Source: an uncultured bacterium
GTDB taxonomy: Bacteria > Patescibacteriota > Saccharimonadia > Saccharimonadales > Saccharimonadaceae
Direction: 5' to 3'
DNA: 64,000 nucleotides
Assembly: GCA_903899655.1 (NCBI GenBank)
Contig: CAIUKF010000017.1
Location: 50,586-114,585, forward strand
Part shown: one piece after another, positions 1,897-54,634 of the stretch
Numbering within the stretch: position 1 is the stretch's first letter
Layout: the number at the start of each line of letters is the position of its first letter
Position numbers and translations under genes: made by a program
The notes under the pieces: generated by a model
Database searches by the model: none
What the model was told of the DNA's origin: nothing
What the model saw: the letters and a program-made list of their open reading frames with translations, nothing else

Positions 1897-3510
1897 ATGA
1901 AAAACGTGTGGGCGGGAAAACAAATACAATCAAAAATAAGTATTTTTTTCAACGGCTTTCGGACTGTAGAACACAGTGAATCGAACGGTTTCACAATCGT
2001 CGAACTACTAGTCGTAGTCGTAATCATTGGCATCCTAGCCTCTATCTCATACATCTCATACATGGGCATATCCCAAAAAGCAACTGTTGCTGTCTTAAAA
2101 TCTGATCTTCGTAATGCTGCAACTACACTAGAACTAGATAAAACAGTCACTGGTAACTATCCAGCTAACCAAAACGATGCCAATGGTGGTAAAGGTCTAC
2201 CTAAATCCCCTGGAACATCATACCAATACACTGTAGTTGGTAATGACTACAATCTTAGTGCTACATCTGGACTACTAGCTTTTCATATCTCTTCTACTAG
2301 TGGTGGTCTAATCGAAGACAATGTTTGGTCTGGGCATACGGCGCCAGGAGGTGGCACTGTTTGGAAGCAAACTATCGCAGGTTCATCTTATGCATGTGCG
2401 ACTGGAACGAATAGTTTGGCTTATTGTTGGGGAGCTAACACTTTTGGAGCATTAGGAAATAATTCTTCTGTTGATAGCATGACGCCTGTCAGTGTTAGCA
2501 CGTCGGGGGCTATGAGTGGTAAAACGATTAAGTTTTTGGTAGGAAATAATTATAATAACTGTGCTATCGCGTCTGACGACAAAGCATATTGTTGGGGTTG
2601 GAATTCATATGGTGCGATTGGTAATAATTCGACAACTAATGCCTTGGTGCCAACTGCGGTCGATATGACTGGTGTTTTAAGTGGTAAAACGATTAAATCA
2701 ATGACTGTAGGGCAGTATAATGCATGTGCTATCGCTTCTGACGACAAAGCATATTGTTGGGGATTAAATAATGCTGGCCAAATTGGCAATAATTCGACAA
2801 CGCAAAGCCTGGTGCCTGCAGCAGTTGACACGACGGGTTATTTAAGTGGTAAAACCGTAAAATCTATTGGTATAGGTGAATATTCTGCGTGTCTAATAGC
2901 TTCAGATAATTTAGTATACTGTTGGGGTGATAATGGCAGCGGACAGTTGGGCAATACTAATGGGAGTCAAAGACATTCTCCGTATCCAGTTGATACAACA
3001 GGTGTGTTGAATGGCAAAACAGCAGTTTCTTTATCTGTAGGTGCGGAATATGCATGTATTGTCGCCTCAGATAATAATGCTTATTGTTGGGGTAGAAACG
3101 ACTACGGTACGCTAGGTAATAATTCAAATACAAGTAGTTTTGTGCCAGTTGCTGTTAATACAGCTGGCGCATTAAGTGGTAAAACGATTTTATCTGTTTA
3201 CACTAATCAAGGTGCATATTATCATACCTGTGCTTTAGCATCAGATAATAATGCATATTGTTGGGGTGTGAATTGGAATGGTCAACTTGGTGATAATACA
3301 ACGAGCACAAGTTATGTTCCCGTTGCCGTTGATAGGTCTGGGGTGTTAAGTGGTAAGACGATAAAATCTATCAATCTGGGTAGTACTTCAACTTGTTCTA
3401 CTGCTTCTGATAATAATATATATTGTTGGGGTAGTAACGGATCCGGCCAATTAGGGAATAATTCTACAGTAGATAGCCATGTTCCAGTTGTTTCAGCAAC
3501 GATACCATAA
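1897..3510 (+). CDS. Type IV pilin-like protein with a C-terminal RCC1-repeat beta-propeller
   Basis: Prepilin-type N-terminus NGFTIVELLVVVVIIGILASI (G/F cleavage context, Glu at +5). About seven repeats of the YCWGxNxxGQLGN type follow. Confidence 0.8.
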   Translation: MKNVWAGKQIQSKISIFFNGFRTVEHSESNGFTIVELLVVVVIIGILASISYISYMGISQKATVAVLKSDLRNAATTLELDKTVTGNYPANQNDANGGKGLPKSPGTSYQYTVVGNDYNLSATSGLLAFHISSTSGGLIEDNVWSGHTAPGGGTVWKQTIAGSSYACATGTNSLAYCWGANTFGALGNNSSVDSMTPVSVSTSGAMSGKTIKFLVGNNYNNCAIASDDKAYCWGWNSYGAIGNNSTTNALVPTAVDMTGVLSGKTIKSMTVGQYNACAIASDDKAYCWGLNNAGQIGNNSTTQSLVPAAVDTTGYLSGKTVKSIGIGEYSACLIASDNLVYCWGDNGSGQLGNTNGSQRHSPYPVDTTGVLNGKTAVSLSVGAEYACIVASDNNAYCWGRNDYGTLGNNSNTSSFVPVAVNTAGALSGKTILSVYTNQGAYYHTCALASDNNAYCWGVNWNGQLGDNTTSTSYVPVAVDRSGVLSGKTIKSINLGSTSTCSTASDNNIYCWGSNGSGQLGNNSTVDSHVPVVSATIP

Positions 3511-6615: not shown

Positions 6616-7800
6616 ATGGCAGCAGAGTTCGACCGAACTAAACCCCATGTTAACGTAGGCACAATGGGCCACGTTGACCACGGTAAAACAACTTTAACTT
6701 CAGCAATTACTAACGTTCTTGCTCGTCGCAAACCAAGCGCAGTCAACAAAGCTGTTGACTATGCTCAAATCGACAACGCTCCAGAAGAGCGCGCCCGTGG
6801 TATTACTATTGCGTCTTCTCACCAAGAGTATGAATCAGACAAGCGCCACTACGCTCACGTCGACATGCCAGGACACGCTGACTACATCAAAAACATGATT
6901 ACTGGTGCTGCTCAAATCGACGGCGCAATCCTAGTGGTTGCTGCAAACGATGGTCCATTGCCACAAACTCGTGAACACGTTTTGTTGGCTCACCAAGTTG
7001 GTGTTCCTAAGATCCTTGTTTTCCTAAACAAGATGGACTTGGCTGATCCTGAACTAGTTGAACTAGTTGAAATGGATATTCGCGAACTGTTGGCTAAAAA
7101 CGGATTCGACGAAAATGCTCCAATCATCAAGGGTTCTGCAACTAAGGCTCTAGAAGGCGACAAAGAATCAGAAGACGCTATTATGGAACTGGTTGAAGCT
7201 CTAGACAGCTACATTCCAGAACCTGTCCGCGAACTAGACAAACCTTTCCTAATGCCAATTGAGGACGTTTTCTCAATCAAAGGCCGTGGAACAGTTGCTA
7301 CTGGTCGTATTGAACAAGGTGTCATCAAAATCAACGATCCAGTTGAAATTGTTGGTATCCGTGCAACTCAAACATCAGTTGTTACTGGTATTGAAGCTTT
7401 CAAAAAGAACCTTACCCAAGGTCAAGCAGGCGACAACGCTGGTATCTTGCTACGTGGTATTGAGCGCGAACAAATCGAACGCGGTCAAGTTGTTGTTAAA
7501 CCAGGCAGCCTAACTCCACACACCGAGTTTGAGTCTGAAGTTTACATCCTTAAAAAAGAAGAGGGTGGCCGACACACTCCATTTAGCAAAGGTTACAAAC
7601 CACAGTTTTACTTCCGTACAACTGACGTAACCGGTGAAGTTGAACTTCCAGCCGACAAAGAACTAGTTATCCCTGGCGATACACTAACTTTCAAGGTTAA
7701 ATTGCTTGCTCCAATCGCTATGGAAAAAGGTCTAACCTTTGCCATCCGCGAAGGTGGCAAAACTGTTGGTGCTGGTGTTGTTACAAACATCATCAAGTAA
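6616..7800 (+). CDS. tuf: Elongation factor Tu
   Basis: 394 aa with [17 protein letters not shown] and NKMD motifs; AGGAG Shine-Dalgarno upstream. Confidence 0.98.
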
Positions 7801-7879: not shown

Positions 7880-8161
7880 ATGGATAAAGCAAAAAATACA
7901 AAGCGATTCGACAGAATCGATTCCCAACTTGAGCGTATTACTGCTGCAATGATTAATGGTTTTGACCGTATTGATAAAAGGTTTGAACTTACAGCATCTC
8001 AAGAAAGCCTTGATAGGCTAACTAATACGATCGATAGTTTCGTCAAAAGACTAGATGACTCTGAGATTGAACAAGTCTCACGCGATGAACAATTCAAACG
8101 TTTGTTAAGTTGGGCGCGCGAAGTCTCTAAGAAAACCGGAATTCCGCTAAGAGATTTATAG
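7880..8161 (+). CDS. Hypothetical coiled-coil protein (93 aa)
   Basis: ORF with TATAAT-like AATAAATACATG context; no recognisable family. Confidence 0.5.
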   Translation: MDKAKNTKRFDRIDSQLERITAAMINGFDRIDKRFELTASQESLDRLTNTIDSFVKRLDDSEIEQVSRDEQFKRLLSWAREVSKKTGIPLRDL

Positions 8162-8165
8162 AAGT

Positions 8166-8195
8166 AAATACCTTTAAGCAATTGGAGGTGTATTC
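8166..8195 (+). terminator. Second, diverged copy of the tuf terminator
   Basis: AAATACCTTTAAGCAATTGGAGGTGTATT closely resembles 7821-7848. Confidence 0.5.
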
Positions 8196-8217
8196 TTATA
8201 TATGTTTTTTTCTACAT

Positions 8218-8696
8218 CACCGCCCACCATTCCAACACTAATCCAACATCCTGTTTGTCTGACGCGCTTAAAATTAAATCAACTAAACTATGTATCCTGC
8301 GTAACTCGTTACCACTCAAACATACTCGGATAGCCTGGTTTAGTTGATTTAATTTTAACGGTCAAACAAAGGGATATTGTATTAGTATTGTTCATGTTGG
8401 ACGGCTAGCGATGTTTTGAATAGTCGCTAGCCACCAACTCCACCACAAACAACTCAGTCGGCTGTTAGATTACCGTAAAAATAGTCAGTTAGTTTCGTTG
8501 CTAGTCGAGGACCACCTGAACCCAATTGTTTGCTGTTCAGCAAAACAATTGGCGTGAAGGCGATCCTTCACTTTATGGTACCGTCCACGCGTACCATACA
8601 GGAAGGTCGTTCCGCAGACTACAAAGAAACTAACTGACTATTTTTAAACGCGTAATCTAAGTGGCGACTTAGGGGTTTGGGGAGGAGGGGGTGGTG
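8218..8696 (+). ncRNA. Candidate large structured RNA or nested palindromic element (~480 nt, class unknown)
   Basis: No ORF over 60 aa. A closing helix 8218-8225/8689-8696 encloses two perfect helices of 21 bp and 20 bp, plus at least five further hairpins. Details are in the findings. Confidence 0.35.
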
Positions 8697-8727
8697 AATA
8701 AAAAGATGATAGAAATTGAAGCGAATC

Positions 8728-8756
8728 TTGATTATTGTATCTGAAAATGCTACAAT
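8728..8756 (+). promoter_or_regulatory. Sigma70-like promoter for rpsJ
   Basis: TTGATT (8728-8733), 17-nt spacer, TACAAT (8751-8756). A ~110-nt structured leader follows (GTCGCATTGCGAC hairpin). Confidence 0.55.
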
Positions 8757-8867
8757 ACCTGCATATTATTTAATGATATCGACAACTCGGCAGCGACAGA
8801 ACTAAACTGGTTCGTAGCAGAGGTTACGATATAACAGTCGCATTGCGACAAGAAGGAAACCATTTAT

Positions 8868-9191
8868 ATGGCAGACAAGCAAGAACAAAGTCTACGTATT
8901 CGTATTCGCCTAAAAGCATACGATCACAAAGTCATTGACCAATCAGCAAAACAAATTATCGACACTGCAATCCGTACTGGCGCTTCAATCGCCGGTCCAG
9001 TGCCACTTCCTACGCGTCGCAGCACGTTTACGGTTGTTAAGTCACCACACGTCTACAAAAAGGGTGGTGAAGCCTTTGAAATGCGCGTTCACAAACGTCT
9101 AATCGACATTACTGACGCTACTCCAAAGACAATCGACAGTTTGCAAAACCTCAGCCTACCAGCTGGTGTTGATGCTGAAATTCGAATGTAA
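8868..9191 (+). CDS. rpsJ: 30S ribosomal protein S10
   Basis: 107 aa; the [22 protein letters not shown] core is typical of S10. Confidence 0.95.
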
Positions 9192-9209
9192 TCGAAGTTA
9201 AATCAAATT

Positions 9210-9236
9210 AAATACCCCGCATTTCGCGGGGTATTT
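9210..9236. terminator. Bidirectional terminator between rpsJ and a convergent gene
   Basis: AAATACCCCGC-ATTTC-GCGGGGTATTT, an 11-bp perfect stem flanked by A and T tracts. Confidence 0.7.
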
Positions 9237-9255
9237 AATTTGTTGAAATAACAAA

Positions 9256-9546
9256 TTACTTAGATATAGTAACTACATTACCGGTGTTAATTTTGTTAAT
9301 AATATCTAATGTATCCATTTGTATGTTTAACACCCAGATAGATAATATAAGGATATAAATAGCTAAAGCAGACCAATAAATTGTTTGATTAGTAATTCTA
9401 AAAGTTACAAAAGGTGATTGTTCTTTATATATTTGAAAGGATTGCTCGACAACACGAGGTTTGCGACGTACAACACGTTTGACCTTGGCTACCTTTGTGA
9501 CTTTTTTTGCCGCCTTTTTAACTGTTTTCTTAGCCTTAGTTGCCAT
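9256..9546 (-). CDS. Hypothetical lysine-rich single-pass membrane protein
   Basis: 96 aa with a KKxxKK-rich N-terminus followed by one hydrophobic helix. Confidence 0.5.
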   Translation of the reverse strand: MATKAKKTVKKAAKKVTKVAKVKRVVRRKPRVVEQSFQIYKEQSPFVTFRITNQTIYWSALAIYILILSIWVLNIQMDTLDIINKINTGNVVTISK

Positions 9547-9672
9547 TACGTTGCTCCTTATTTGACTATATTAATTATTTTCATTATCCTACATTGTAAA
9601 AATAAACACAAGTAGTATGATAATCTGTTAATAATACACATACCTTACATATTTGTTATACTGACATTATAA

Positions 9673-10893
9673 ATGAATACTATTTATCGTAAACGCAAGC
9701 ATTTGTATCTGACAGCTTTATTAGTTTTGATAGTAATCACTTCTGGTGTCGGTGCTTGGTACTATATTAATAATTATCAAAATAAATCAAAGGTTACTGC
9801 TTCGCAACCCGGTAAGTCTAATGCTGATACTACAGTGGTCAAAGAAGCGCCAAAAAGTGACCCCGTAATTCATATTGCGGCTATGGGTGATATGTTGGCG
9901 CATGATACGATTATTGCCAATGCCAAAACAAGTGACAGCTATGACTTTACCAAGTATTTTACAAACATTAAATCAGCCTATAAGGATGCTAATGTTGTTT
10001 TTTGTAACCAAGAGGGTTTAAGCGCTGGTGATCAGTATGGTATCAGTGGTTATCCGTCATTTAACGCCCCTACTAAATTTTCGGCAGATTTGCAGTCGGG
10101 CGCTGGCTGTAACGTTATTAATCTGGCAAATAATCATATGGGCGATAAAGGTGTTAATGCAACAAACACCACAATTGATAACTGGGCCGCCCTAAAACCT
10201 TTGGCTGTTAGCGGTGCTAATAAATCTGTTGCTGATCAAGAAAAAGTTAGCTTTGCCGAAGTGAACGGTATCAAGATTGGTTTTGTGTCATTTGCTGATT
10301 TTAACAATAATAAATCTACGCCAGATTACAGCATTAATATATATCACGATGATGCATTATTGCGTCGTTTAATAACCCAGGCTAGGGCAGGGGCTGATGT
10401 AGTAATTGTATCAATGCATTGGGGTGTCGAGGATTCGAGTATGGTAAGCACCGATCAAATAAATATGGCTAATGAACTAAGCTTGTTAGGTGTTGATGTA
10501 ATTATTGGTACTGGCCCACACGTGTTGCAAAAAGTTCAAACAATAACACGCAACGATGGCGGTAAAACTATCGTTTGGTATTCGTTGGGTAATATGCTGT
10601 CGTCACAGTTGAACATACCAGAGTTAATTGGTGGTATCGCAACATTTGATATTACTAAATCAACTGATAATAAAATTACGATTACTAACTTGGCATTTAC
10701 GCCAACATATATGCATTACGAATGGACGACTACGCAGGCCGCTAATAATGATTTATTGGCACGTAAAAATGCTATGATATATCTGTTAAGCGCTGCCGCT
10801 GAACCTTTGTCGCGTTCACTATTTAATACAACTGTTGCCGAGCAAAAGCAATATGTTGTTGACGTTTTAGGTTCTGAAGTCACGGTGAAATGA
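9673..10893 (+). CDS. CapA/PGA_cap family metallophosphoesterase-like protein
   Basis: 406 aa; N-terminal anchor, then GDMLAHD, NLANNHMGDKG and VSMHWG motifs typical of CapA-type proteins. Confidence 0.7.
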   Translation: MNTIYRKRKHLYLTALLVLIVITSGVGAWYYINNYQNKSKVTASQPGKSNADTTVVKEAPKSDPVIHIAAMGDMLAHDTIIANAKTSDSYDFTKYFTNIKSAYKDANVVFCNQEGLSAGDQYGISGYPSFNAPTKFSADLQSGAGCNVINLANNHMGDKGVNATNTTIDNWAALKPLAVSGANKSVADQEKVSFAEVNGIKIGFVSFADFNNNKSTPDYSINIYHDDALLRRLITQARAGADVVIVSMHWGVEDSSMVSTDQINMANELSLLGVDVIIGTGPHVLQKVQTITRNDGGKTIVWYSLGNMLSSQLNIPELIGGIATFDITKSTDNKITITNLAFTPTYMHYEWTTTQAANNDLLARKNAMIYLLSAAAEPLSRSLFNTTVAEQKQYVVDVLGSEVTVK

Positions 10894-10903
10894 AGAGTCT
10901 ATT

Positions 10904-11031
10904 AGAATATGGCTATTGGAATGTGGCAAAGTAGTCTCAAATAATATGTGCTATGTATAGATTCTAAGTTCATAATTAGGATGGAACTAATTGTTATTTG
11001 CTAAATTCCAATAGCCATATTCCAATAGCTA
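10904..11031. repeat. GGAATATGGCTATTGG repeat family, inverted pair between convergent genes (site 2)
   Basis: AGAATATGGCTATTGGAATGTGGCAAA (10904-10930) and AAATTCCAATAGCCATATTCCAATAGC (about 11003-11029). Confidence 0.75.
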
Positions 11032-11033
11032 AA

Positions 11034-11939
11034 CTAAATAGCGCCGTTGGCTCGCAAAGTGTCGTCGGCTGTTTGAAGGTATGGCCAAGCTTCATCAAGC
11101 GTTAATCCGCTGTCATGTAAGGCAGTTGCTAGGTCTATGCCAACATAACGAAAATGCCAAGGTTCATATTGATAACCTGTTATTGATACTTTGTCACTAG
11201 GATAACGTAAAATAAATCCGTATTTATATGAGTTATGGACTAGCCATTGACCATCGCTAGTGTCACCAAAGCAAGTGTCTAAATAGCAATTACGTGACAC
11301 AGTACTGATATCGACGGCTAAGCCTGTTTGATGCTCGCTTTGGCCGGGAAGTGCGATTGATTGATTAGCGGCAGCTAGTCCAACACTGGCTGCAGCACTG
11401 TTTAAATAGGTTTGTTGCAAAGCCGCTGAACGATAGCCACTGCCAATCATTAATTGGTTACCAGCATCATTGGCGGCCGCAAACATATTGGTTAGTGGTG
11501 TCTCGATATCGCTTCTAACTGATCGTTCGCCGTCGCTTTTGTCAGTTCGGGTTGCTACGTTCGGTGTTTTAAGGTTTGCAGGCACATAATCGATTGAAAT
11601 TGCATGAGTTTTACTGACTAAAGCCCATAAGCTAGATGTATCTGAATAGTCATCAACCAAAGCTTTGATGGGCTGAGCGCCTGGCAGATTAATGTATACA
11701 GGTTGTTTTTTTCGGGCCGCTTTGGCAGATAATTCAGCCTGAAGGTTGATTTCGTTTAATGTTTTAGTCAAAGCGGCGTCAATATTAGCAAATTGCTCGA
11801 CTTGGTAGAAGTATAAATTATAAGCTGATACAGATGTGATGACAATAAATACAAACCAAAATATAATTTTAATTAGTTTATGGTGGTTTGTTTTACTGAC
11901 TAACATGTTTAACACTATATTATCATAATAGTCGGTCAA
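11034..11939 (-). CDS. D-alanyl-D-alanine carboxypeptidase, VanY/peptidase M15B family
   Basis: 301 aa with SGYRS, SEHQTGLAVD and EPWHFRY motifs and an N-terminal membrane anchor. Confidence 0.8.
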   Translation of the reverse strand: MTDYYDNIVLNMLVSKTNHHKLIKIIFWFVFIVITSVSAYNLYFYQVEQFANIDAALTKTLNEINLQAELSAKAARKKQPVYINLPGAQPIKALVDDYSDTSSLWALVSKTHAISIDYVPANLKTPNVATRTDKSDGERSVRSDIETPLTNMFAAANDAGNQLMIGSGYRSAALQQTYLNSAAASVGLAAANQSIALPGQSEHQTGLAVDISTVSRNCYLDTCFGDTSDGQWLVHNSYKYGFILRYPSDKVSITGYQYEPWHFRYVGIDLATALHDSGLTLDEAWPYLQTADDTLRANGAI

Positions 11940-12008
11940 TATTGATTGAAGTGATAGCTTGTTATTAATAATACTGTGTCAATCTAGGCATGATATTATA
12001 AGTATCAT

Positions 12009-12443
12009 ATGGGTAAAATATCTAGAAGCAAAATATCATCGTCTGATAAATCTGGATCTATTTTAGCTAAGCTGTTGACTGTGATTGTTATTTTAGCTGT
12101 AATTGTGTTCACAGGATACGTTGTTACGACCCAAAAAGATCAATTTACCACGCTACAGATTTCGTCTTCATTACAATCCGATTTAACTTATGCATCTAAC
12201 CAAATAAAGCTTTTTCAAACTGTCGATGTAAATAGCAATTTTCCGACGGCAAATAACTGTCCGACACCTGGAGCAACTGAAGTATGTCTTGTATCACATA
12301 CTGGCAGTAAATTTATTTACGTACCAAGTAATGACACTAACCCAAAAACCTTTACTTTGGATGCTGTTAGCGATAATGATAAATTTAGTATTAAGTATCG
12401 TATTACAAATAGTACCAATCCTGTGTTAATGAGCGGTCAATAG
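12009..12443 (+). CDS. Hypothetical membrane-anchored protein with a pilin-like N-terminal helix
   Basis: 144 aa. The hydrophobic helix LLTVIVILAVIVF is followed by LQSDLTYASNQIK, which resembles the alpha1-C region of the two pilin-like proteins in this window. Confidence 0.45.
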   Translation: MGKISRSKISSSDKSGSILAKLLTVIVILAVIVFTGYVVTTQKDQFTTLQISSSLQSDLTYASNQIKLFQTVDVNSNFPTANNCPTPGATEVCLVSHTGSKFIYVPSNDTNPKTFTLDAVSDNDKFSIKYRITNSTNPVLMSGQ

Positions 12444-12524
12444 ACAAAACAAAATCAAACACATTCTTGACGCATAACAGATAGTGTGCTAGAGTTAAAT
12501 GGTAACTTATAACGAATAATAAAC

Positions 12525-12591
12525 AATTCTTGGTGAATTGGTAGGTCTATATCTTTAGAAACCGCCTCCCACCAAGAATTTTAAGTGGGAG
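12525..12591 (+). promoter_or_regulatory. Leader with mutually exclusive hairpins upstream of rplC
   Basis: AATTCTTGGTG (12525-12535) pairs with CACCAAGAATT (12570-12580). This overlaps CTCCCAC (12566-12572) / GTGGGAG (12585-12591), which contains the Shine-Dalgarno. Confidence 0.45.
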
Positions 12592-12601
12592 CAAAAGCGC
12601 T

Positions 12602-13216
12602 ATGAAAGCACTTCTCGGTACCAAAATTGGTATGACCCAAATCATCAGTGAGGATGGTGTTGCAGTTCCTGTAACGCTAATTCAAGCTGGCCCTGTGACT
12701 GTGACTCAGGTCAAAACTGTCGAAACCGACGGTTACACTGCAGTACAAGTGGCATATGGTGAGGGTAAGAACCTGAGCAAGGCCGTGGCTGGACATGTAA
12801 AACCAGCCGGAAGTAATCCGAAGCATATTCGGGAGATCCGTGTAAATCAACTACCAGAAGGCCTCTCGGTAGGAAGCACGATCGATGTAACAACATTTGC
12901 ACTTGGAGACATCGTTGATGCCACCGGTACAAGTAAAGGTAAAGGTTTTGCGGGTAACGTAAAACGACACAACTTTAATACCAGCAAGCACACTCACGGT
13001 GGTAAGGGTGATGTTCGTAAACCAGGATCAATTGGATCAATGTATCCACAAAAGGTCTTCAAGGGTAAACGAATGGCAGGACGCATGGGTCATGACCAAG
13101 TTACGGTCAAAAACCTAGTCGTTTCTTACATCGACCTTGAAAACAATTTGATTGGTCTTCGCGGTGCTGTACCAGGTCCTAAAAAAGGCCTGATAATTAT
13201 CGGAGGGAAAGCATAA
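12602..13216 (+). CDS. rplC: 50S ribosomal protein L3
   Basis: 204 aa, MKALLGTKIGMTQI start, conserved order. Confidence 0.96.
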   Translation: MKALLGTKIGMTQIISEDGVAVPVTLIQAGPVTVTQVKTVETDGYTAVQVAYGEGKNLSKAVAGHVKPAGSNPKHIREIRVNQLPEGLSVGSTIDVTTFALGDIVDATGTSKGKGFAGNVKRHNFNTSKHTHGGKGDVRKPGSIGSMYPQKVFKGKRMAGRMGHDQVTVKNLVVSYIDLENNLIGLRGAVPGPKKGLIIIGGKA

Positions 13217-19236: not shown

Positions 19237-19238
19237 AT

Positions 19239-19304
19239 AGCTATCGGAATATGGCTATTGGAATATGGCAAATCGCAAATAACCAACGCCAAATTCTAAA
19301 TAGA
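19239..19304 (+). repeat. GGAATATGGCTATTGG repeat family (site 3), between rpsH and rplF
   Basis: AGCTATCGGAATATGGCTATTGGAATATGGCAAATCGCAAAT, directly after the rpsH stop. Confidence 0.75.
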
Positions 19305-22824: not shown

Positions 22825-22912
22825 AATATAGTCCGTGGGGTGCTTTATGATAGTTTTCATAAGGCTGAGATCATACCCAATTAACTTGATCCGGATAATG
22901 CCGGCGTAAGGA
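22825..22912 (+). promoter_or_regulatory. TPP (THI-box) riboswitch
   Basis: GGGGTGC...GGCTGAGA...ACCC...CTTGATCCGGATAATGCCGGCGTAAGGAG matches the conserved THI-box core. The 3' end includes the Shine-Dalgarno of the next gene. Confidence 0.85.
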
Positions 22913-22918
22913 GTAGAT

Positions 22919-23575
22919 ATGAGTAATATAACATTAGATAAACCAGCGTTTTTAGTAGGCGCTGGTATTTTTAATATAAGCATATATAAAAAACAATGGT
23001 CAGATAATTATACAATTATCGGTGTCGACGGTGGTGCCGACAGTCTAGCAAAAATTGGCGTAACACCAGATTATATTATTGGCGATTTAGATTCGATTAT
23101 TGATCCAATCAAATACGGCAAGTCATCAACAGTAATCAGAGTTGCCGAACAGGATACAACTGATTTTGAAAAAGCTTTGATTTACTTCGATGCACCACTG
23201 TATTTATGCATTGGTTTTACTGGCTCACGATTTGATCATACAATCGAAGTTTTGCATATTTTTACAAAATTTCGTAACAAAACAATTATTTGTTTTCACT
23301 ATAACGATTTAATATTCGTAGTACCTAACGATTGGAAGCCTAAATTATCCATCGGAACGCGTGTGTCGTTGTTCCCAATTGAGCCTACTAACATACACTC
23401 AACAACCGGACTAAAATATTCTGCAACTGGACTCAACCTTGTTATGGGGTCAATAATAAGTACGTCAAATGAAGCAATCTCTAATCAGATTGAAGTGAAA
23501 TACGATAAAGGGCTGCTTGTTGGTATAGTGCCGGCCAGTCAATACAAAAACATAATTAATTCATTAGGACTTTAA
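22919..23575 (+). CDS. thiN: Thiamine pyrophosphokinase
   Basis: 218 aa with GVDGGAD, GDLDS, EQDTTDFEKAL and GFTGSRFDH motifs, as in ThiN/TPK. Confidence 0.8.
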   Translation: MSNITLDKPAFLVGAGIFNISIYKKQWSDNYTIIGVDGGADSLAKIGVTPDYIIGDLDSIIDPIKYGKSSTVIRVAEQDTTDFEKALIYFDAPLYLCIGFTGSRFDHTIEVLHIFTKFRNKTIICFHYNDLIFVVPNDWKPKLSIGTRVSLFPIEPTNIHSTTGLKYSATGLNLVMGSIISTSNEAISNQIEVKYDKGLLVGIVPASQYKNIINSLGL

Positions 23576-23576
23576 C

Positions 23577-24959
23577 ATGAACTTAGCTTTTATTGATTAC
23601 ATATTTATTGTTGCATATATGTTTGGTATTTTAGTGCTGGGGTTATGGTCTATGAAACGCGGCAAGTCAGACGAAGATTATCTTTTGGCTGGACGAAAAT
23701 TGACACTACCTGCCATGGTAATGTCACTTGTAACTACTTGGTATGGAGCTATTTTAGGTGTAGGTGAATTAGTCTTTAGATATGGTATTGTCGGTTGGGT
23801 AACACAAGGGTTGTTATGGTATGTAATATATCTATTTTTTGCATTGATGATGGCCAAAAAAGTACAAAATTCGAAAAAAATAACTATCGCGGATCATTTG
23901 ATGGAAAAAAGCGGCAAAAAGTCAGCATTTGTCGGAACAATCTTAACATATATTATGACATCTCCCGCTCCATACATATTGTCATTGGGCGTTGTTATAG
24001 ATATGATTTTTGGAATCGGTTTGTTTTTGTCGATCCTAATAGGATCATTGATTAGCGGCATATACATTTGGAGTGGCGGATTTAGATCTGTCGTTAGAGT
24101 TGACGGCTTACAATTTGCATTAATGTATTTTGGATTTGGCGCTTTATTAATTGGAGCAATTATTCATTTTGGTGATATGTCATTTTTTATTAATAAATTA
24201 CCACCAACACATTTGACGTTTACCGGCGAACTACCGATTTTAACAATTGCCGCATGGGGACTAATGGCTTTATGGACTTTGGTGGATCCAGACTTCTTTC
24301 AGCGATGTTACGCTTCAGGGTCAGACAAAATAGCGCGTAACGGAATACTTTGGTCAATTCTATTTTGGTTTATTTTTGACATGCTAACTTTAATAACAGG
24401 TTTGTATGCAACAGCGGCCTTTCCAAATGCCGAACCAACAAGCATATATTTCGTATTAGCGGATAACGTTTTACCGTTTGCTATAAAAGGAATTTTTTGT
24501 GTATCTGTACTGGCTATAATTATGTCAACTATGGATTCATTTTTGTTTACTAGCGGCACAATTATGGGCAAAGACCTACTTGGACTTGTTTATCCAAAAG
24601 TTAGACTAAAAAAACTTAGCCGAATTGGTATCGTAATAACTATAGTAGTATCACTAATATTAATTGTGTTGTTCAAGTCGGTCATAGGAATTATATATGT
24701 ATTAGGAACAGTCGGCGTATCGGCATTACTTTTGCCAGTTTTATTAGCGATATTTTCAAAGCATAAAATGAATGATAATATCGTGCTGTCTGGTATGTTA
24801 GCCGCAATTACGACTTCGGTGATTTGGCTTATTGGAGGTTTGATAAATAGCGTAGAGGGATGGCCTCAGTATTGGTTTGGAATAGATCCGATGTATGTCG
24901 GATTAGTAGCAAGCTTGATAGTTTATATATTGACAAGAAAAATATTATTTATCGATTAA
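23577..24959 (+). CDS. Sodium:solute symporter family transporter (probable thiamine or precursor uptake)
   Basis: 460 aa, about 12-13 transmembrane helices, YLLAGRKL motif; starts one base after thiN, downstream of the TPP riboswitch. Confidence 0.7.
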   Translation: MNLAFIDYIFIVAYMFGILVLGLWSMKRGKSDEDYLLAGRKLTLPAMVMSLVTTWYGAILGVGELVFRYGIVGWVTQGLLWYVIYLFFALMMAKKVQNSKKITIADHLMEKSGKKSAFVGTILTYIMTSPAPYILSLGVVIDMIFGIGLFLSILIGSLISGIYIWSGGFRSVVRVDGLQFALMYFGFGALLIGAIIHFGDMSFFINKLPPTHLTFTGELPILTIAAWGLMALWTLVDPDFFQRCYASGSDKIARNGILWSILFWFIFDMLTLITGLYATAAFPNAEPTSIYFVLADNVLPFAIKGIFCVSVLAIIMSTMDSFLFTSGTIMGKDLLGLVYPKVRLKKLSRIGIVITIVVSLILIVLFKSVIGIIYVLGTVGVSALLLPVLLAIFSKHKMNDNIVLSGMLAAITTSVIWLIGGLINSVEGWPQYWFGIDPMYVGLVASLIVYILTRKILFID

Positions 24960-30211: not shown

Positions 30212-30237
30212 GTTTTCTGCACAAATTATTACATTTA

Positions 30238-30262
30238 CCCCAGATTCATTTCTGGGGTTTTT
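30238..30262 (+). terminator. Terminator ending the ribosomal superoperon
   Basis: CCCCAGA-TTCATT-TCTGGGG hairpin followed by TTTTT. Confidence 0.7.
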
Positions 30263-30399
30263 GTCTGTGTATGATTATGTTTTTTAATTCATTTACTAAA
30301 TGCCGTAATGTGGTTACATTTCATTGCACTAATGTTATAATATAATAGTAATAATTTTGAAGAATTTATAAAGTACAAGGAATATGGTATAATAACAAT

Positions 30400-30639
30400 A
30401 TGAGCAGTATTCAACAAGATTATCAGTACTATATAAAACACCAACTCGAACTTGTCAAAAAATATGGTGGTAGATATATTGTAATTAAAGATAGTGAAGT
30501 TGTTGGTTCATACGACTCCGAAATAGAAGCCTATGAAGATGCTAAAAGTAAATACGTACTTGGAACGTTCATTATAAAACCATGCTTGCCTCAAAATGAA
30601 GAACCTAAAAATATACTAAACACTAGGGCGTATTTCTAA
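30400..30639 (+). CDS. Hypothetical small acidic protein (79 aa), partner of the downstream protease
   Basis: ORF ends 5 nt before the next start; no family recognised with confidence. Confidence 0.5.
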   Translation: MSSIQQDYQYYIKHQLELVKKYGGRYIVIKDSEVVGSYDSEIEAYEDAKSKYVLGTFIIKPCLPQNEEPKNILNTRAYF

Positions 30640-30644
30640 GTCAT

Positions 30645-31160
30645 ATGAATCGGATAGATGCGTTTACGGTTAAATATAATGCACTATCAAATGTAATAAA
30701 TAGCCAAGTTGGGGTTTGTGCGCCTTTTAGCCAAAACGACCCTGCGCCTGAAATTAACAAGCACGTTGCAATATGGGACACTGGCGCTAGCTGTACAGTA
30801 ATTACTCAAAAAGTTGTTGATGGACTAAATTTAAAACCTATCGATATTGTAATGGCTAGTTCGGCATCAGCGACTGAGCCGACAGAAGTATATTTGATTA
30901 ATTTATTATTGCCGAATAACATCATGATTCCTGGTTTGCGGGTCTTAAAAATGAACGTAGCAAATTCAGATGTATTAGTTGGTATGGACATCATAAACCT
31001 CGGTGACTTATCTGTTACGAATCACGAGGGTAAGACATGTATGTCCTTCCGACTTCCATCAATGCATGAAGTTGACTATGTCAAACGTATTGAAGAAAAC
31101 TTGAAAAAGAAAAGTAATCCAAAGACAAAAAAGCGCAGAAAAAAGAATAGACGAAAATAA
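30645..31160 (+). CDS. Retropepsin-like (clan AA) aspartic protease with a basic C-terminal tail
   Basis: 171 aa with the active-site context AIWDTGAS, a second motif VLVGMDIINL, and the tail KKKSNPKTKKRRKKNRRK. Confidence 0.65.
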   Translation: MNRIDAFTVKYNALSNVINSQVGVCAPFSQNDPAPEINKHVAIWDTGASCTVITQKVVDGLNLKPIDIVMASSASATEPTEVYLINLLLPNNIMIPGLRVLKMNVANSDVLVGMDIINLGDLSVTNHEGKTCMSFRLPSMHEVDYVKRIEENLKKKSNPKTKKRRKKNRRK

Positions 31161-31350
31161 TTATTTTATCGACTCTATGCTTACATTTTTAAGCATATAT
31201 AGTTTTTCATTTGTATTTTTAGGCTTCGCATACTAACATCTAACCTCGAAATATGTTATAATAAAGAAATGAGCATATTAAACACAAACAAACAATATAT
31301 CTAGTCTTTTTGTAACATACTAAACCTAACTGCTATAATAAAGGACATAT

Positions 31351-36832: not shown

Positions 36833-37039
36833 ATGGCAAAAAAGAACACCAAGCGTAAATTAGTCGGTCTAGTAAGCAGCCTCAGCGGCCACCGTACATA
36901 CTACACCAGCAAAAACACTCAAAACACTTCAGACAAATTAGTCTTGAAAAAGTTTGACCCAATTGCACGCGAACATGCAACTTACACTGAAACCAAGGGC
37001 AACCTAGGTCGCAACGAAGTCAAAGAACGCAAGGGATAG
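36833..37039 (+). CDS. rpmG: 50S ribosomal protein L33, cysteine-free (C-) form
   Basis: 68 aa; KLVGLVSSLSGHRTYYTSKNTQNTSDKLVLKKFDPIAREHATYTETK parallels E. coli L33. Confidence 0.88.
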   Translation: MAKKNTKRKLVGLVSSLSGHRTYYTSKNTQNTSDKLVLKKFDPIAREHATYTETKGNLGRNEVKERKG

Positions 37040-37043
37040 GGTT

Positions 37044-37197
37044 TGGCTATTAGCTATTGGAATATGGCTATTGGCAAATAATAATACAAAATATAAAACT
37101 CCGGGTTATCCGGAGTTTTTTGATATTGCCAGATTACAATAGCCGACTGCTAACTTTATGCCAATAGCCATATTCCATATTCTATATTCCAATAGCT
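37044..37197. repeat. GGAATATGGCTATTGG repeat family, inverted pair around a bidirectional terminator (site 4)
   Basis: GGCTATTAGCTATTGGAATATGGCTATTGGC (37044-37076) and GCCAATAGCCATATTCCATATTCTATATTCCAATAGC (37159-37197) flank the hairpin AAAACTCCGG-GTTAT-CCGGAGTTTT (37096-37121). Confidence 0.8.
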
Positions 37198-37199
37198 AA

Positions 37200-41823: not shown

Positions 41824-41898
41824 AGGGGTATAGTACAACGGTTAGTATATGGGTTTCCAAAACCTAGGATCATGGTTCGATTCCGTGTACCCCTGCCA
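41824..41898 (+). tRNA. tRNA-Trp (CCA)
   Basis: 75 nt. Acceptor AGGGGTA/TACCCCT, anticodon loop TTCCAAA, T arm CATGG-TTCGATT-CCGTG, discriminator G, encoded CCA. Confidence 0.9.
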
Positions 41899-43473
41899 AT
41901 TTAGACGGACAGCCTCTTCGGAGGCTTTTTGTATCTGTTGAGGCATGGTTCTAACCTCATCAAGCTGTGCTCGTATTGATTTTATGTTCAGCCTCACTGG
42001 TTCAAGCCATTCGAAAGGTGTTATTTGTAGTTTTCCTTCAAATAATATCGGGTTCTGACCAATTGAGAGCAGTATATGCTTTTTGTCTAAAATGCCGCCC
42101 GTGACAAACTTCTCGTTTGCATTTGTGAGTCGTTCGAATGTTTTTGTGGCAAATTCGTACCAATTTTCGGCACGATTTGCTGTGTCAGACTGGTCTTGGT
42201 GTATTTCCTTCAGCTCAGCCTTTAATTGTTTGCTTTTACGTTCGTATTCATGATTGTCAATGAGTTTTTTACTCGCCATATCGAGGAGGTTATCAAGTTG
42301 ACTCTCGATACTTATAGCCGTAGCACTCTGCATGGTATTAACGCTTTTTCTGTCTTTAGTTTCTTCGTCAGCCATCTCTCGAAAAGATTGCATTGCCCAT
42401 TCTTCAAGCTGTGGTGTAAGTTCGTAGCTATCAAGTAGCACATTTAATTCGTTGTATAGTTTATCTTCCTTCTTATAACTATAAATTTTTACTTGTGAGC
42501 ACCCGCCTCGTTTGCCGGTACAGTGATAGTATCGATGTACCGTCTCACCGCCGTTCTTGAGCTTCTTGGTCTTCGCTTGTGCGGTAATCATGCAACCACA
42601 TTCACCACAGCGTATAAAGCCTCTAAGCGCGAATTCCTTGCGTTGGGCTAAGTGTGGGTAACCACGGCTACCAAGTAGACTCTGAACCTTATCATATTCA
42701 TCTTGTGTAATCATTGCGGGAAACTCCGCAGGGTAAAACCTATATTGATCGTATGGATCGGGTACTAAGCCCGCATATCGTATATTTCTAAATATCTGAT
42801 ATAAGGTCGATCTTGAAAGCGGTTTATTGCCACTTTTACTGCGTTCAACTGTACGATATTTCCAGTCATTATTCATTGTGCGCATAATATCCTGCACGCT
42901 ATGTTCACCCGTTAAAAATAGGTCAAAGGCCTGACGGATAAGAGGGAACCGTACCGGATCCTTTATCACACGCTTTGTTATAAGGTCATTCAAGTAGCCT
43001 TGGGGAGCTACACCCGTTAAACCACCATTCTTGCGCTTTGTTTCATTGCCGCGTTTGACATCTTTGCTTAACTTCGAAGAAAAATATTGAGACTGGCTCA
43101 TAGTCATCTGTAACATCATAATTCCCTCTGGTGAATTATCAAATGTAAAACTTGCAAACTTTAGGTCCTTCAAGACACCTTTGCGAATACGGTAGGTGAT
43201 AGCCGAAGCATCCATTTCGTTTCGTGAAAGCCTATCAGGGTGCCATGCAACTATACCGTCAATCTTGCCATCATCGATCATCTTAAGAATTGAAGCAAAT
43301 ACAGGCCGTTTATCTGGCTCGGCTGCACTTTTACTTTCATCAAGCACATCGACAATATTCAAGTCACTGAATCGCTCGCTTATTTTATCGCGCTGCGCTT
43401 CTTTAGATAATACTTGCCGTTCTTCATCCTCTGTGGATTTACGAACGTATCCTATATAGCGTAATTTGTTCAT
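41842..43473 (-). CDS. Large serine recombinase (integrase)
   Basis: 543 aa. Resolvase-type N-terminus YIGYVRKSTEDEERQ, recombinase domain, zinc ribbon CGECGC...YYHCTGKRGGC, then a coiled-coil. The last ~19 codons are antisense to tRNA-Trp. Confidence 0.85.
   Translation of the reverse strand: MNKLRYIGYVRKSTEDEERQVLSKEAQRDKISERFSDLNIVDVLDESKSAAEPDKRPVFASILKMIDDGKIDGIVAWHPDRLSRNEMDASAITYRIRKGVLKDLKFASFTFDNSPEGIMMLQMTMSQSQYFSSKLSKDVKRGNETKRKNGGLTGVAPQGYLNDLITKRVIKDPVRFPLIRQAFDLFLTGEHSVQDIMRTMNNDWKYRTVERSKSGNKPLSRSTLYQIFRNIRYAGLVPDPYDQYRFYPAEFPAMITQDEYDKVQSLLGSRGYPHLAQRKEFALRGFIRCGECGCMITAQAKTKKLKNGGETVHRYYHCTGKRGGCSQVKIYSYKKEDKLYNELNVLLDSYELTPQLEEWAMQSFREMADEETKDRKSVNTMQSATAISIESQLDNLLDMASKKLIDNHEYERKSKQLKAELKEIHQDQSDTANRAENWYEFATKTFERLTNANEKFVTGGILDKKHILLSIGQNPILFEGKLQITPFEWLEPVRLNIKSIRAQLDEVRTMPQQIQKASEEAVRLNWQGYTESNHDPRFWKPIY
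41911..41931 (+). terminator. Terminator after tRNA-Trp
   Basis: AGCCTC-TTCG-GAGGCT hairpin followed by TTTTT. It lies inside the antisense 3' end of the recombinase ORF. Confidence 0.65.
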
Positions 43474-53635: not shown

Positions 53636-54634
53636 ATGGCATTAAACAAAAGCAGTTCATATGTACTACTAAATATTCTGGCTGGACGCAACACGGCAGC
53701 GATGATAAGTGAGTATATGACGAATATAGATATTCGATCTATTCAACGTTCACTAACTAGGTTAGTCGAGCTTGGAGTTATAAAACGAAATGGAATCAAT
53801 AATCCAACCTATAATATTGCGTATTCAAAACTTATCAGCACCGAAATACCTGACAAGCTAATAATTAATGAAGATAGGCCTGAAAGCTCTTTGAACTTTG
53901 ACCTTATCGATTGGCTAAAATCAATTCCCGAAAGTGAACTGGAATTTGCTTTAGGGTTAGACAAAATGATACTAGATAGCATTGGTACAAGTGGCAAAAT
54001 GACCGCTAAAGACCTAGAATACCTGACAGTCGAGCTGTCATGGAAGTCTTCGGCACTGGAAGGTAACACCTATACATTACTAGACACACAGCTTCTTTTA
54101 CTAGAAGGCATTAAAGCAAAAGATAAGACAGAGTTTGAAACTCAGATGATTCTTAACCACAAGAACGCTATTTCATTTATTGTTGAAAATAGTGATTTAT
54201 TTAAAAAAGATATTAAATATAGCACCCTAGAGGAACTTCATCGAATTATTAGCCACAATCTAGGAATCGATAGTGGCCTACGTAAAAAAATAATCCGAAT
54301 TAGCGCCAGTAACTATCAACCCTTGTCTAATCCTCATCAGTTAAGGGAATGTGCAGATTCAGTACTGGGAATTATTAGTAACATAAATAGTCCTGTCCTG
54401 CGGTCTTTATTGGCGCTGGCGCTAATACCATACCTACAAACCTTTGAAGATGGCAACAAACGAACTGGGCGCATGTTGGCGAATGGTATATTGATTCATT
54501 CTATCTCTCGTGGATTTAGTTTGCGCAGGTTGACAGCACGACAACTTGCCTTGGCATATTTATCTTTTTATGAGTTCAATAGTTTAAAGGCGCTGTCTGA
54601 TTTGTTAGCTGCTGAATTAAGCAAGCCAGTATAA
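53636..54634 (+). CDS. Fic/DOC family protein with an N-terminal winged-helix domain and a degenerate active-site motif
   Basis: 332 aa. It has the inhibitory-helix motif SSALEGN. The Fic motif reads QTFEDGNKRTGR where HxFx(D/E)GNGRxxR is expected (His to Gln, Gly to Lys). Confidence 0.7.
   Translation: MALNKSSSYVLLNILAGRNTAAMISEYMTNIDIRSIQRSLTRLVELGVIKRNGINNPTYNIAYSKLISTEIPDKLIINEDRPESSLNFDLIDWLKSIPESELEFALGLDKMILDSIGTSGKMTAKDLEYLTVELSWKSSALEGNTYTLLDTQLLLLEGIKAKDKTEFETQMILNHKNAISFIVENSDLFKKDIKYSTLEELHRIISHNLGIDSGLRKKIIRISASNYQPLSNPHQLRECADSVLGIISNINSPVLRSLLALALIPYLQTFEDGNKRTGRMLANGILIHSISRGFSLRRLTARQLALAYLSFYEFNSLKALSDLLAAELSKPV

Follow-up and report, generated by a model that had tools for sequence, protein, structure and literature searches.

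What occupies the roughly 480 nucleotides between tuf and rpsJ on this contig of an uncultured Saccharibacteria lineage, a stretch that contains hardly any coding capacity and yet folds into long helices? The initial annotation favoured a single large structured RNA and named mobile palindromes as the alternative. We analysed the whole 64,000-nucleotide stretch of DNA (the window) and found that positions 8215-8698 consist of two paralogous hairpin repeats, non-coding and arranged head to head as a doublet, which we designate T1 and T2. They belong to a dispersed multicopy family, for which a conserved structured tip, strand-specific folding, strain polymorphism and recent spread are all firmly established by the comparisons below. 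As to their nature, our judgement tips slightly towards a non-autonomous mobile hairpin doublet, the single-stranded form of which would be recognised by a trans-acting factor.

Genes at the locus are ordered tuf (6616-7800), an open reading frame (ORF) of 93 amino acids (7880-8161), the folded region and rpsJ (8868-9191). Folded as RNA, the plus strand of 8200-8710 reached -221.5 kcal/mol compared with -122.8 +/- 5.9 kcal/mol for dinucleotide shuffles (z = -16.6), and the minus strand reached -223.7 kcal/mol (z = -17.1). The fold is real and far beyond chance, and its equal stability on both strands was the first sign of palindromic DNA rather than of one oriented RNA. We confirmed the helices from which a single RNA had been assembled: the closing helix CACCGCCC (8218-8225) with GGGTGGTG (8689-8696), including one G-T pair; TGTTTG (8252-8257) with CAAACA (8363-8368) and the perfect 21-bp helix 8268-8288/8338-8358; the 9-bp hairpin 8403-8432; TTAGATTAC (8465-8473) with GTAATCTAA (8652-8660); the long helix of the second arm, which spans 25 nt at 96% complementarity (8476-8500/8622-8646); and three inner hairpins (8522-8552, 8554-8571 and 8571-8601). 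The region had also been described as ORF-free, which holds for 8202-8700, where the longest ORF has at most 43 amino acids, but not for the whole interval, since the 93-aa ORF lies between tuf and the structured DNA. The G-run at 8672-8694, once considered for a G-quadruplex, is present and belongs to the G-rich 3' arm of T2, where it pairs with a C-rich 5' arm. The Rfam check that the initial annotation had called for was run with Rfam 15 on the whole window and, at gathering thresholds, returned only a TPP riboswitch and tRNAs, leaving the folded region unmatched; at E <= 10, positions 8000-9000 gave only sub-threshold plant miRNA hairpin models, which are noise. Nine related loci likewise gave no match at gathering or permissive thresholds.

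When the left half was aligned with the right half in reverse complement, the two proved to be homologous. The doublet and its immediate surroundings comprise the following features.

8204-8214, no strand: T-rich left flank, GTTTTTTTCTA, which pairs with the A-rich 8698-8707 in the minimum free energy structure and lengthens the palindrome
8215-8414, minus strand: T1 (also H1), about 200 nt, from family alignments; favoured strand read from 8414 down to 8215
8268-8358, minus strand: inner stem of T1, a perfect 21 bp (8268-8288 with 8338-8358) enclosing the T1 tip
8293-8332, minus strand: T1 core, UAUCC-GAGUAUGUUUGA-[GU GGUA AC]-GAGUUACGCA-GGAUA, that is, P1, an irregular internal loop and the P2 mini-hairpin
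8403-8432, no strand: junction palindrome, GGCTAGCGA / TCGCTAGCC, formed by the inner ends of both elements; the point of cargo insertion in relatives
8421-8698, plus strand: T2 (also H2), about 280 nt, homologous to inverted T1, favoured strand plus, with copies elsewhere
8476-8646, plus strand: T2 stem and apical domain, with a near-perfect 25-bp stem (8476-8500 with 8622-8646)
8501-8622, plus strand: T2 core, ..UAGU-CGAGGACCACCUGAACCC ... GGUCGUUCCGCA-GACUA.., from alignment of T2 copies
8652-8694, plus strand: G-rich 3' outer arm of T2, pairing with the C-rich 5' arm 8431-8473 (43 nt, 77% complementary)
7880-8161, plus strand: the 93-aa ORF (ORF93), coiled-coil-like, a neighbour of the doublet outside the element; a homologue lies between both hairpins in relatives L002 and L004
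8728-8756, plus strand: rpsJ promoter-like site, TTGATT-17-TACAAT with TG, outside the doublet and kept in all relatives

T1 and T2 are built alike, with arms that are C-rich on the 5' side and G-rich on the 3' side, a junction of the form ACGCG...TTAAAA, a long stem that is AT-rich and nearly perfect, and conserved blocks in the tip that are related between the two; similar C-rich and G-rich arms occur in the copies that we call a2-type. The T2 tip, GAGGACYACCYGAAC ... UCGUUCCGCA, is paralogous to that of T1 and about 85 nt longer. The surplus consists of the three small hairpins at 8522-8552, 8554-8571 and 8571-8601, which are lineage-specific insertions in the T2 core, and in the minimal T2 form (locus L099) merely 38 nt separate the conserved halves. 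The inner ends of the two elements (GGCTAGCGAYRT) face each other in the 9-bp junction palindrome, and in empty doublets about 6 nt (TTTGAR) are kept between them. Runs of T and A bracket other doublets in the same way. The arms of 8215-8698 were not found elsewhere within the 64-kb window.

We define the R strand as the better-folding strand of each element; in T1 it reads 5'-ACATCGCTAGCC...GGTGATG-3'. T1 of the window, folded alone, gave -87.2 kcal/mol on the minus strand and -66.8 kcal/mol on the plus strand, so that its R strand is the minus strand, whereas T2 gave -136.8 kcal/mol on the plus strand and -124.5 kcal/mol on the minus strand, and its R strand is the plus strand. Because T1 and T2 favour opposite strands, no preference is left for the region as a whole. 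The R strand folded better in 22 of 24 local copies, in which it allowed 144 G-U pairs compared with 90 on the other strand. Among metagenomic copies it was the better strand in 82 of 92 and the worse in 5, with a mean difference of -14.4 kcal/mol. The sequence of the T1 inner stem varies among subfamilies while its pairing is kept, and the 14 bp adjoining the tip in 48 class-A copies comprised 46 different arm sequences with 541 Watson-Crick pairs, 55 R-strand G-U pairs and 12 A-C mismatches. So many arm sequences with pairing retained indicate that the stems are maintained by compensatory change, and on one strand. These comparisons demonstrate that it is the R strand alone of each repeat that is under selection to fold.

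At the end of the stem sits a conserved module of about 45 nt, the tip, made up of P1, then an irregular internal loop, and a mini-hairpin of 2-3 bp whose loop is usually GNA or GNNA, in the order P1 - GAGUAUGUYUGA - P2 - GAGUUACGCA - P1'. Across 94 distinct aligned tips, P1 was paired in 94.7% and P2 in 96.8%, with double changes in both; none of 500 shuffles reached the observed pairing score, and slid controls collapsed. RNAalifold recovered P1 and P2 independently and added, inside the nominal loop, a GUA/UAC pairing and a U-G/C-G pair that is workable on the R strand only. A covariance model built from 94 T1 cores scored 72.6 bits (E = 1.6e-21) at 8274-8351 on the minus strand, the next best hit in the window reaching 9.8 bits. 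P2 and an extra hairpin of the class-B copies mostly have the form GC-GNA-GC or carry GNNA loops, resembling the extra-stable d(GCGNAGC) DNA mini-hairpins. The complementary tip strand contains TATCCTG/C, which we take, as a lead only, to resemble the MOBP/VirD2 nick consensus YATCCTG/Y (nick at the slash). Exact tip blocks of 10-12 nt are common to hosts whose housekeeping proteins are only about one third identical. A conserved small ORF running across the hairpin was considered and rejected, a 1-nt indel in the tip shifting the frame between subfamilies.

We then compared the locus by BLASTN with relatives, taken as contigs that encode an identical EF-Tu or S10 protein. Seven of these (L003, L006, L009-L011, L013 and L015) have the arrangement of the window at 98.7-100% identity. 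In L001 and L014, whose flanks are 96% identical, a membrane-type ORF of 107 aa takes the place of 8170-8746, to which it is unrelated. L005 carries 8249-8472 and 8647-8690 in inverted orientation and lacks the 174-nt block 8473-8646. In L002 and L004, which correspond to the NCBI metagenome-assembled genome (MAG) ELA178, one T1 lies directly 3' of the tuf terminator and a second T1, of another subtype and inverted, just before the rpsJ promoter; the space between them holds a homologue of ORF93, 82 aa long, and an ORF of 117 aa that had only weak hits to membrane proteins and showed no homology to the 107-aa ORF of L001. L012 carries 1063 bp inside the loop of the junction palindrome, with genes for a DUF4352 lipoprotein and an XRE-type helix-turn-helix (HTH) protein; the DNA to the left of its T1 comes from another locus (TylF, T2SSE), and downstream the contig is 99.99% identical to the window. 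Either a rearrangement took place at the repeat very recently, or the contig was misjoined there during assembly. The 480 nucleotides are not conserved as a unit, and the doublet has been gained, lost, inverted, truncated and split among near-identical strains. When further insertion polymorphisms were sought in 12 strain contigs over 13.5-55 kb of the window, none was found.

Two side observations concern T1 in these and other loci. Just upstream of a complete T1, L012 holds at 2212-2260 the 5' arm alone of an a2-type hairpin (ACATCACCACCCCCTCATCCCC...TGTTTGTCT), which looks like the remnant of an earlier copy. An extra hairpin, ACATTTTCCAAGGT-N-ACCTTGGAA, is common to the unrelated loci L012, L023, L028 and L030 some 60-90 nt beyond the T1 inner end, suggesting a longer T1 variant or a common remnant of cargo.

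An rpsJ (S10) operon leader was rejected as a candidate: the doublet lies upstream of the promoter-like site at 8728-8756, and it is absent in L001 and L014 despite identical S10. At tuf-rpsJ the doublet is probably a passenger between ORF93 and the rpsJ promoter and no regulator of tuf or rpsJ.

To what extent the repeats occur beyond this locus was addressed by pattern scans. A class-specific scan of one genome per GTDB species returned 14 loci. ELA178, a Saccharibacteria MAG with the same EF-Tu as the window, carries at least nine T1 matches on three contigs, roughly one per 60-70 kb; a second freshwater MAG has T1 matches on six contigs, several of which end at the repeat, and a third has one. 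T2-type and chimeric copies were mapped additionally by BLAST. All copies are intergenic and lie among housekeeping genes such as dnaE, galU, uvrA, pheST, murG, ftsA and tsaBE, some of them between convergent genes whose counterparts in relatives overlap. Copies of T1 elsewhere, at unrelated loci and in other MAGs, are 97-99% identical to T1 of the window, whereas the syntenic fusA-tuf coding DNA of ELA178 is 93.8% identical to that of the window, indicating recent duplication or transfer of the repeat. Dispersed copies of the individual palindromes thus exist, a finding that the initial annotation had itself named as evidence against one RNA. Its alternative, nested palindromic insertions resembling miniature inverted-repeat transposable elements (MITEs), proved broadly right and incomplete: the repeats are dispersed palindromes, but they stand side by side rather than nested, and a conserved structured tip, covarying variable stems and strand-specific folding are unusual for MITEs.

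A tip-only pattern, CCTGCGTAACTC N8-18 ACATACTCGG, was scanned over JGI metagenomes and matched at least 120 stretches, the matches listed coming from lakes, sediments, salt marsh, hypersaline mats and soils. The host loci range from 34 to 51% GC, and their orthologous SmpB or RluB-like proteins are down to 33-35% identical. Class-B copies, of about 182 nt, have a branched architecture and are not simple palindromes; loci with such copies encode a molybdopterin oxidoreductase, a FadB-like enzyme, methylmalonyl-CoA mutase, MetE and DPP-IV, a repertoire of free-living-type metabolism that, judged by candidate phyla radiation (CPR) genomes, is not Saccharibacteria-like. The T1 tip sequence therefore occurs both in Saccharibacteria and in loci encoding such metabolism, and on this gene content the tip module probably spans phyla. 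The 3.2-kb contig L057 carries two class-B copies (123-304 and 3059-3240) in direct orientation, 98.9% identical and about 3 kb apart; this pair brackets a DPP-IV-like peptidase gene in a non-Saccharibacteria host. Filled and empty orthologous sites, all from different species, measured 473 vs -3 nt, 254 vs 11, about 454 vs 62-64, and 393-635 vs 20; the first is the interval between convergent uvrA and its neighbour, which is 473 nt in L099, the two genes overlapping in L030 and L103. The tip pattern had zero matches in 2.9 million viral contigs, and the family was not found in 50,697 phage records and 72,556 plasmid records; three matches of the class-A junction pattern in viral contigs were rejected as chance, lying inside a phage gene. 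Within the literature searched, no paper linked Saccharibacteria or Patescibacteria to such repeats and none had the tip 12-mers; the hairpin family is apparently undescribed.

The geometry of the doublet recurs. In all 14 T1-T2 doublets, from many species, the R strands diverge from the centre, and inverted T1-T1 pairs were also seen (L022 and L034). Besides the cargo of L012 and L002, a TM2 + Ltp-lipoprotein gene lies between the halves in L023, and an outward-facing T1...T1 pair in L112 encloses a hydrolase gene and the gene for lysyl-tRNA synthetase (LysRS), with no transposase. Class-A ends pair as CATC...GATG and class-B ends as AAAATCAGGTGTGGCT/AGCCACACCTGATTTT; end sequences differ by lineage while their complementarity is kept.

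On this evidence we propose that the T1/T2 repeats would be non-autonomous mobile elements, copied or moved via a single-stranded intermediate in which the folded R strand may present the tip to a trans-acting protein encoded elsewhere. The doublet would be a minimal transposon-like unit with T1 and T2 as its ends, 'empty' in the window and cargo-bearing in relatives. The intermediate is more probably DNA than RNA; we lean towards DNA because there are no promoters or terminators and no orientation bias, the mini-hairpins are of the GNA type and the repeats behave like mobile elements. Several observations weigh against this proposal. Among the 120 immediate neighbours, the 25 most frequent of 134 Pfam families include no transposase or recombinase, the recurrent families listed being housekeeping genes only. 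A phmmer search of the six-frame translation of 1.3 Mb of flanks found no Y1/HUH match, a weak test without profiles in which the queries were IS200 and IS608 TnpA and Escherichia coli RAYT sequences. In the same flanks, about 1.3 Mb, no autonomous copy and no related insertion sequence (IS) with the same ends was found. No consistent direct repeat, as left by target duplication, was seen beside 19 aligned copies, the sites of four filled/empty comparisons or the L057 copies, the joints of the filled/empty pairs being blurred by the distance between species. The R strand was unbiased with respect to local GC skew (38 vs 45), which speaks against a dependence on the lagging-strand template in the manner of IS200/IS605. 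The L012 arrangement, as noted, could be a mis-join. In the tip, 22 positions were fixed by the search pattern (the YUGA block, P1 and P2 were left free) and are thus no evidence of invariance; and tolerance of G-U (G-T) pairs together with covariation fits RNA as well as single-stranded DNA.

The reading with which the analysis began, a single ornate, structured RNA some 480 nt long with 8218-8225/8689-8696 as its closing helix, can draw on the high predicted stability and the G-T pair of that helix. We now regard it as practically untenable: both strands are equally stable, the halves favour opposite strands, two inverted elements with homologous ends account for the closing helix, and the unit is absent, split, inverted or truncated in relatives while either half is found on its own elsewhere. 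The main rival, although we consider it unlikely, is a family of small structured non-coding RNAs. Each hairpin would be an R-strand RNA of 200-280 nt, made by divergent transcription from the doublet centre or by read-through; the tip would bind a protein or have catalytic or processing activity, and multicopy spread would be a secondary trait. Strand-specific folding, covariation of P1, P2 and the stems, conserved loop nucleotides and the branched class-B architecture are what such RNAs would show; the cargo genes of L012, L023 and L002 point outward and run into the R-strand form of the hairpin beside them, and a doublet ensures one R-strand hairpin whichever strand is transcribed. Yet no sigma-70-like promoter was seen on either strand of 8200-8700, the R-strand hairpins are followed 3' by A-runs and not by a U-tract, the R strand has no orientation bias relative to adjacent genes, and Rfam has no matching family. 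Presence that varies among near-identical strains and copies that are 97-99% identical at unrelated loci would be unusual for RNA genes, and the mini-hairpins, of 2-3 bp, are capped by GNA triloops and not by GNRA or UNCG tetraloops. Five ribozymes (hammerhead, twister, pistol, hatchet and hairpin) gave only chance-level short matches, and the same holds for group II domain V, the kink-turn, dif/Xer sites, DnaA boxes and Tn3 inverted repeats; Rfam detected none of these where a model exists.

The position of the cargo brings in another possibility, namely that the repeats are DNA recombination sites bounding gene cassettes, like integron attC sites or Xer-dependent dif modules, the folded R strand being the substrate of a site-specific recombinase and accessory genes being inserted and excised at the doublet centre. 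Three different cargos lie exactly between the halves, the insert splits the junction palindrome, empty doublets conserve the spacer of about 6 nt, and attC bottom strands also fold strand-specifically. We nevertheless think it improbable, considering that it is the hairpin tip and not the base that is conserved, that the sites are inverted instead of arrayed one way, that many are single copies or doublets flanking housekeeping genes, that no integrase-like gene recurs beside the copies (among the 25 most frequent Pfam families) and that the cargo joints have no common crossover sequence. We would give about as little credence to palindromic repeats, host-domesticated or passive, similar to REP, ERIC or Correia elements, which would act as bidirectional transcription insulators or stabilisers of mRNA 3' ends and need no dedicated machinery. 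Such roles suit the exclusively intergenic placement, including sites between convergent genes that overlap in relatives, the very stable hairpins on both strands and the position of the pair between the tuf/ORF93 transcription unit and the rpsJ promoter; they have no need of a 45-nt tip that is conserved between hosts with SmpB/RluB-like proteins of about 33-35% identity, they leave one-strand selection unexplained, and a terminator-like U-tract is missing. The non-autonomous mobile doublet remains our preferred explanation. More tentatively, and with the doubt outweighing the expectation, T1 and T2 may be the ends of an unrecognised mobile gene-cassette carrier, each end a long single-stranded hairpin that would offer its enzyme a 45-nt structured module, or else this module may be a new class of functional RNA or ribozyme.

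The family can be set against known repeats and structured elements. Like MITEs, Correia/NEMIS, ERIC, RUP and BOX repeats, the elements are short, non-coding, multicopy and intergenic with long hairpins, and they show presence/absence polymorphism among strains and near-identical copies within a genome; at 180-280 nt they fall within the size of MITEs (<600 bp, non-coding, multicopy and dispersed), and their ends pair as terminal inverted repeats do. In MITEs, however, the terminal inverted repeats are conserved and the interior is free, whereas in T1/T2 the tip is conserved and the arms drift with compensation, and neither a parental IS nor a target-site duplication was found in the flanks searched. 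REPINs, which are mobilised by RAYT Y1 transposases, offer a recurring inverted doublet, a single-stranded hairpin as the relevant form, an enzyme supplied in trans from a single gene and no expected target duplication, as proposed here for T1/T2. By contrast, their units are 20-40 nt with a conserved 5' tetranucleotide and hundreds of copies, compared with 180-280 nt and about 10-20 copies per genome for T1/T2, and the T1-T2 doublet is heterotypic. PATE, derived from IS200/IS605, has end hairpins on the same strand and is tied to the lagging strand, whereas the strands of T1 and T2 are opposite and show no link to GC skew.

Integron attC sites are likewise imperfect hairpins with structure kept over sequence, one active strand and small accessory genes adjoining. 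In attC, however, the R and L boxes at the base are conserved and the tip is variable, the reverse of T1/T2, and attC sites form arrays of one orientation beside intI, whereas T1/T2 form inverted pairs dispersed among housekeeping genes; strand-specific folding is like a single-strand hairpin signal and does not by itself show membership of the attC family. The sso/dso hairpins and HUH nick sites of rolling-circle replicons and single-stranded DNA phages also combine a long, orientation-specific hairpin with a conserved tip, but T1/T2 are chromosomal and multicopy, have no Rep or relaxase nearby and were not found in the viral, phage and plasmid collections. OLE, GOLLD, ROOL and HEARO/omega RNAs similarly extend over several hundred nucleotides with many helices and no ORF; unlike these large ornate RNAs, the doublet has no covariance-model match, is not one unit and favours opposite strands in its halves, and the neighbouring genes examined included no IscB- or TnpB-like ORF. 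Collectively, the elements work like REPIN/MITE repeats and like the single-strand signals of attC and sso, yet fail defining features of each.

Several further features of the neighbourhood deserve mention. No Pfam family matched ORF93 above the cut-off. On the other side of the doublet, rpsJ and rplC lie about 3.4 kb apart (8868-12602), separated by a 96-aa ORF on the minus strand, a PGA_cap/CapA-like gene (9673-10893), a VanY peptidase gene on the minus strand and a 144-aa ORF; L002 and L004 lack the PGA_cap gene, so that this break in the S10 operon is also strain-variable. A second, unrelated dispersed intergenic repeat is built of 14-nt units, CTATTGGAATATGGC and its complement, at 779-872, 10899-11032, 19237-19294 and 37036-37199, arranged as short arrays and as inverted pairs (such as 10899-10930 with 10997-11028). 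A TPP riboswitch on the plus strand (22826-22930, 68 bits) directly upstream of a thiamine pyrophosphokinase gene (22919-23575), which is followed by an SSF-family transporter gene (23577-24959), plausibly marks a thiamine salvage operon. The window shares with L153 and L155 a two-gene insert at 30216-31322 (DUF5678 and an aspartyl-protease-like ORF); strain L154 lacks it, aligning at 95.6-99.1% apart from that. A large serine recombinase gene on the minus strand (41824-43473; 543 aa; Resolvase, Recombinase and Zn_ribbon domains) abuts a tRNA gene, and to its right, up to about 55 kb, are many ORFs without a family and a Fic protein gene (53636-54634); the region is probably an integrated element. 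Finally, 1897-3510 encodes a 537-aa protein in which RCC1 repeats come after a pilin-like methylation motif at the N terminus; 165-nt tandem units at 2551-3384 encode the repeats.

Little is known about gene gain and loss in Saccharibacteria and other ultra-small bacteria with tiny, streamlined genomes. The family described here marks hotspots of difference among near-identical strains, with superinfection-exclusion-type and lipoprotein genes between its hairpins, and may be a vehicle or a landmark for the flux of accessory genes. Conserved tip blocks and covarying stems are the signature of a specific molecular partner and provide a handle for finding it. With many copies at contig ends, such repeats break metagenome assemblies, and they can be mistaken for large RNAs. 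If the more tentative reading as a cassette carrier or a new RNA class were true, a structured nucleic-acid motif would in either case match the known small ribozymes in breadth of occurrence while missing from Rfam; a cassette carrier would operate in CPR bacteria and in bacteria of free-living-type metabolism, probably across phyla.

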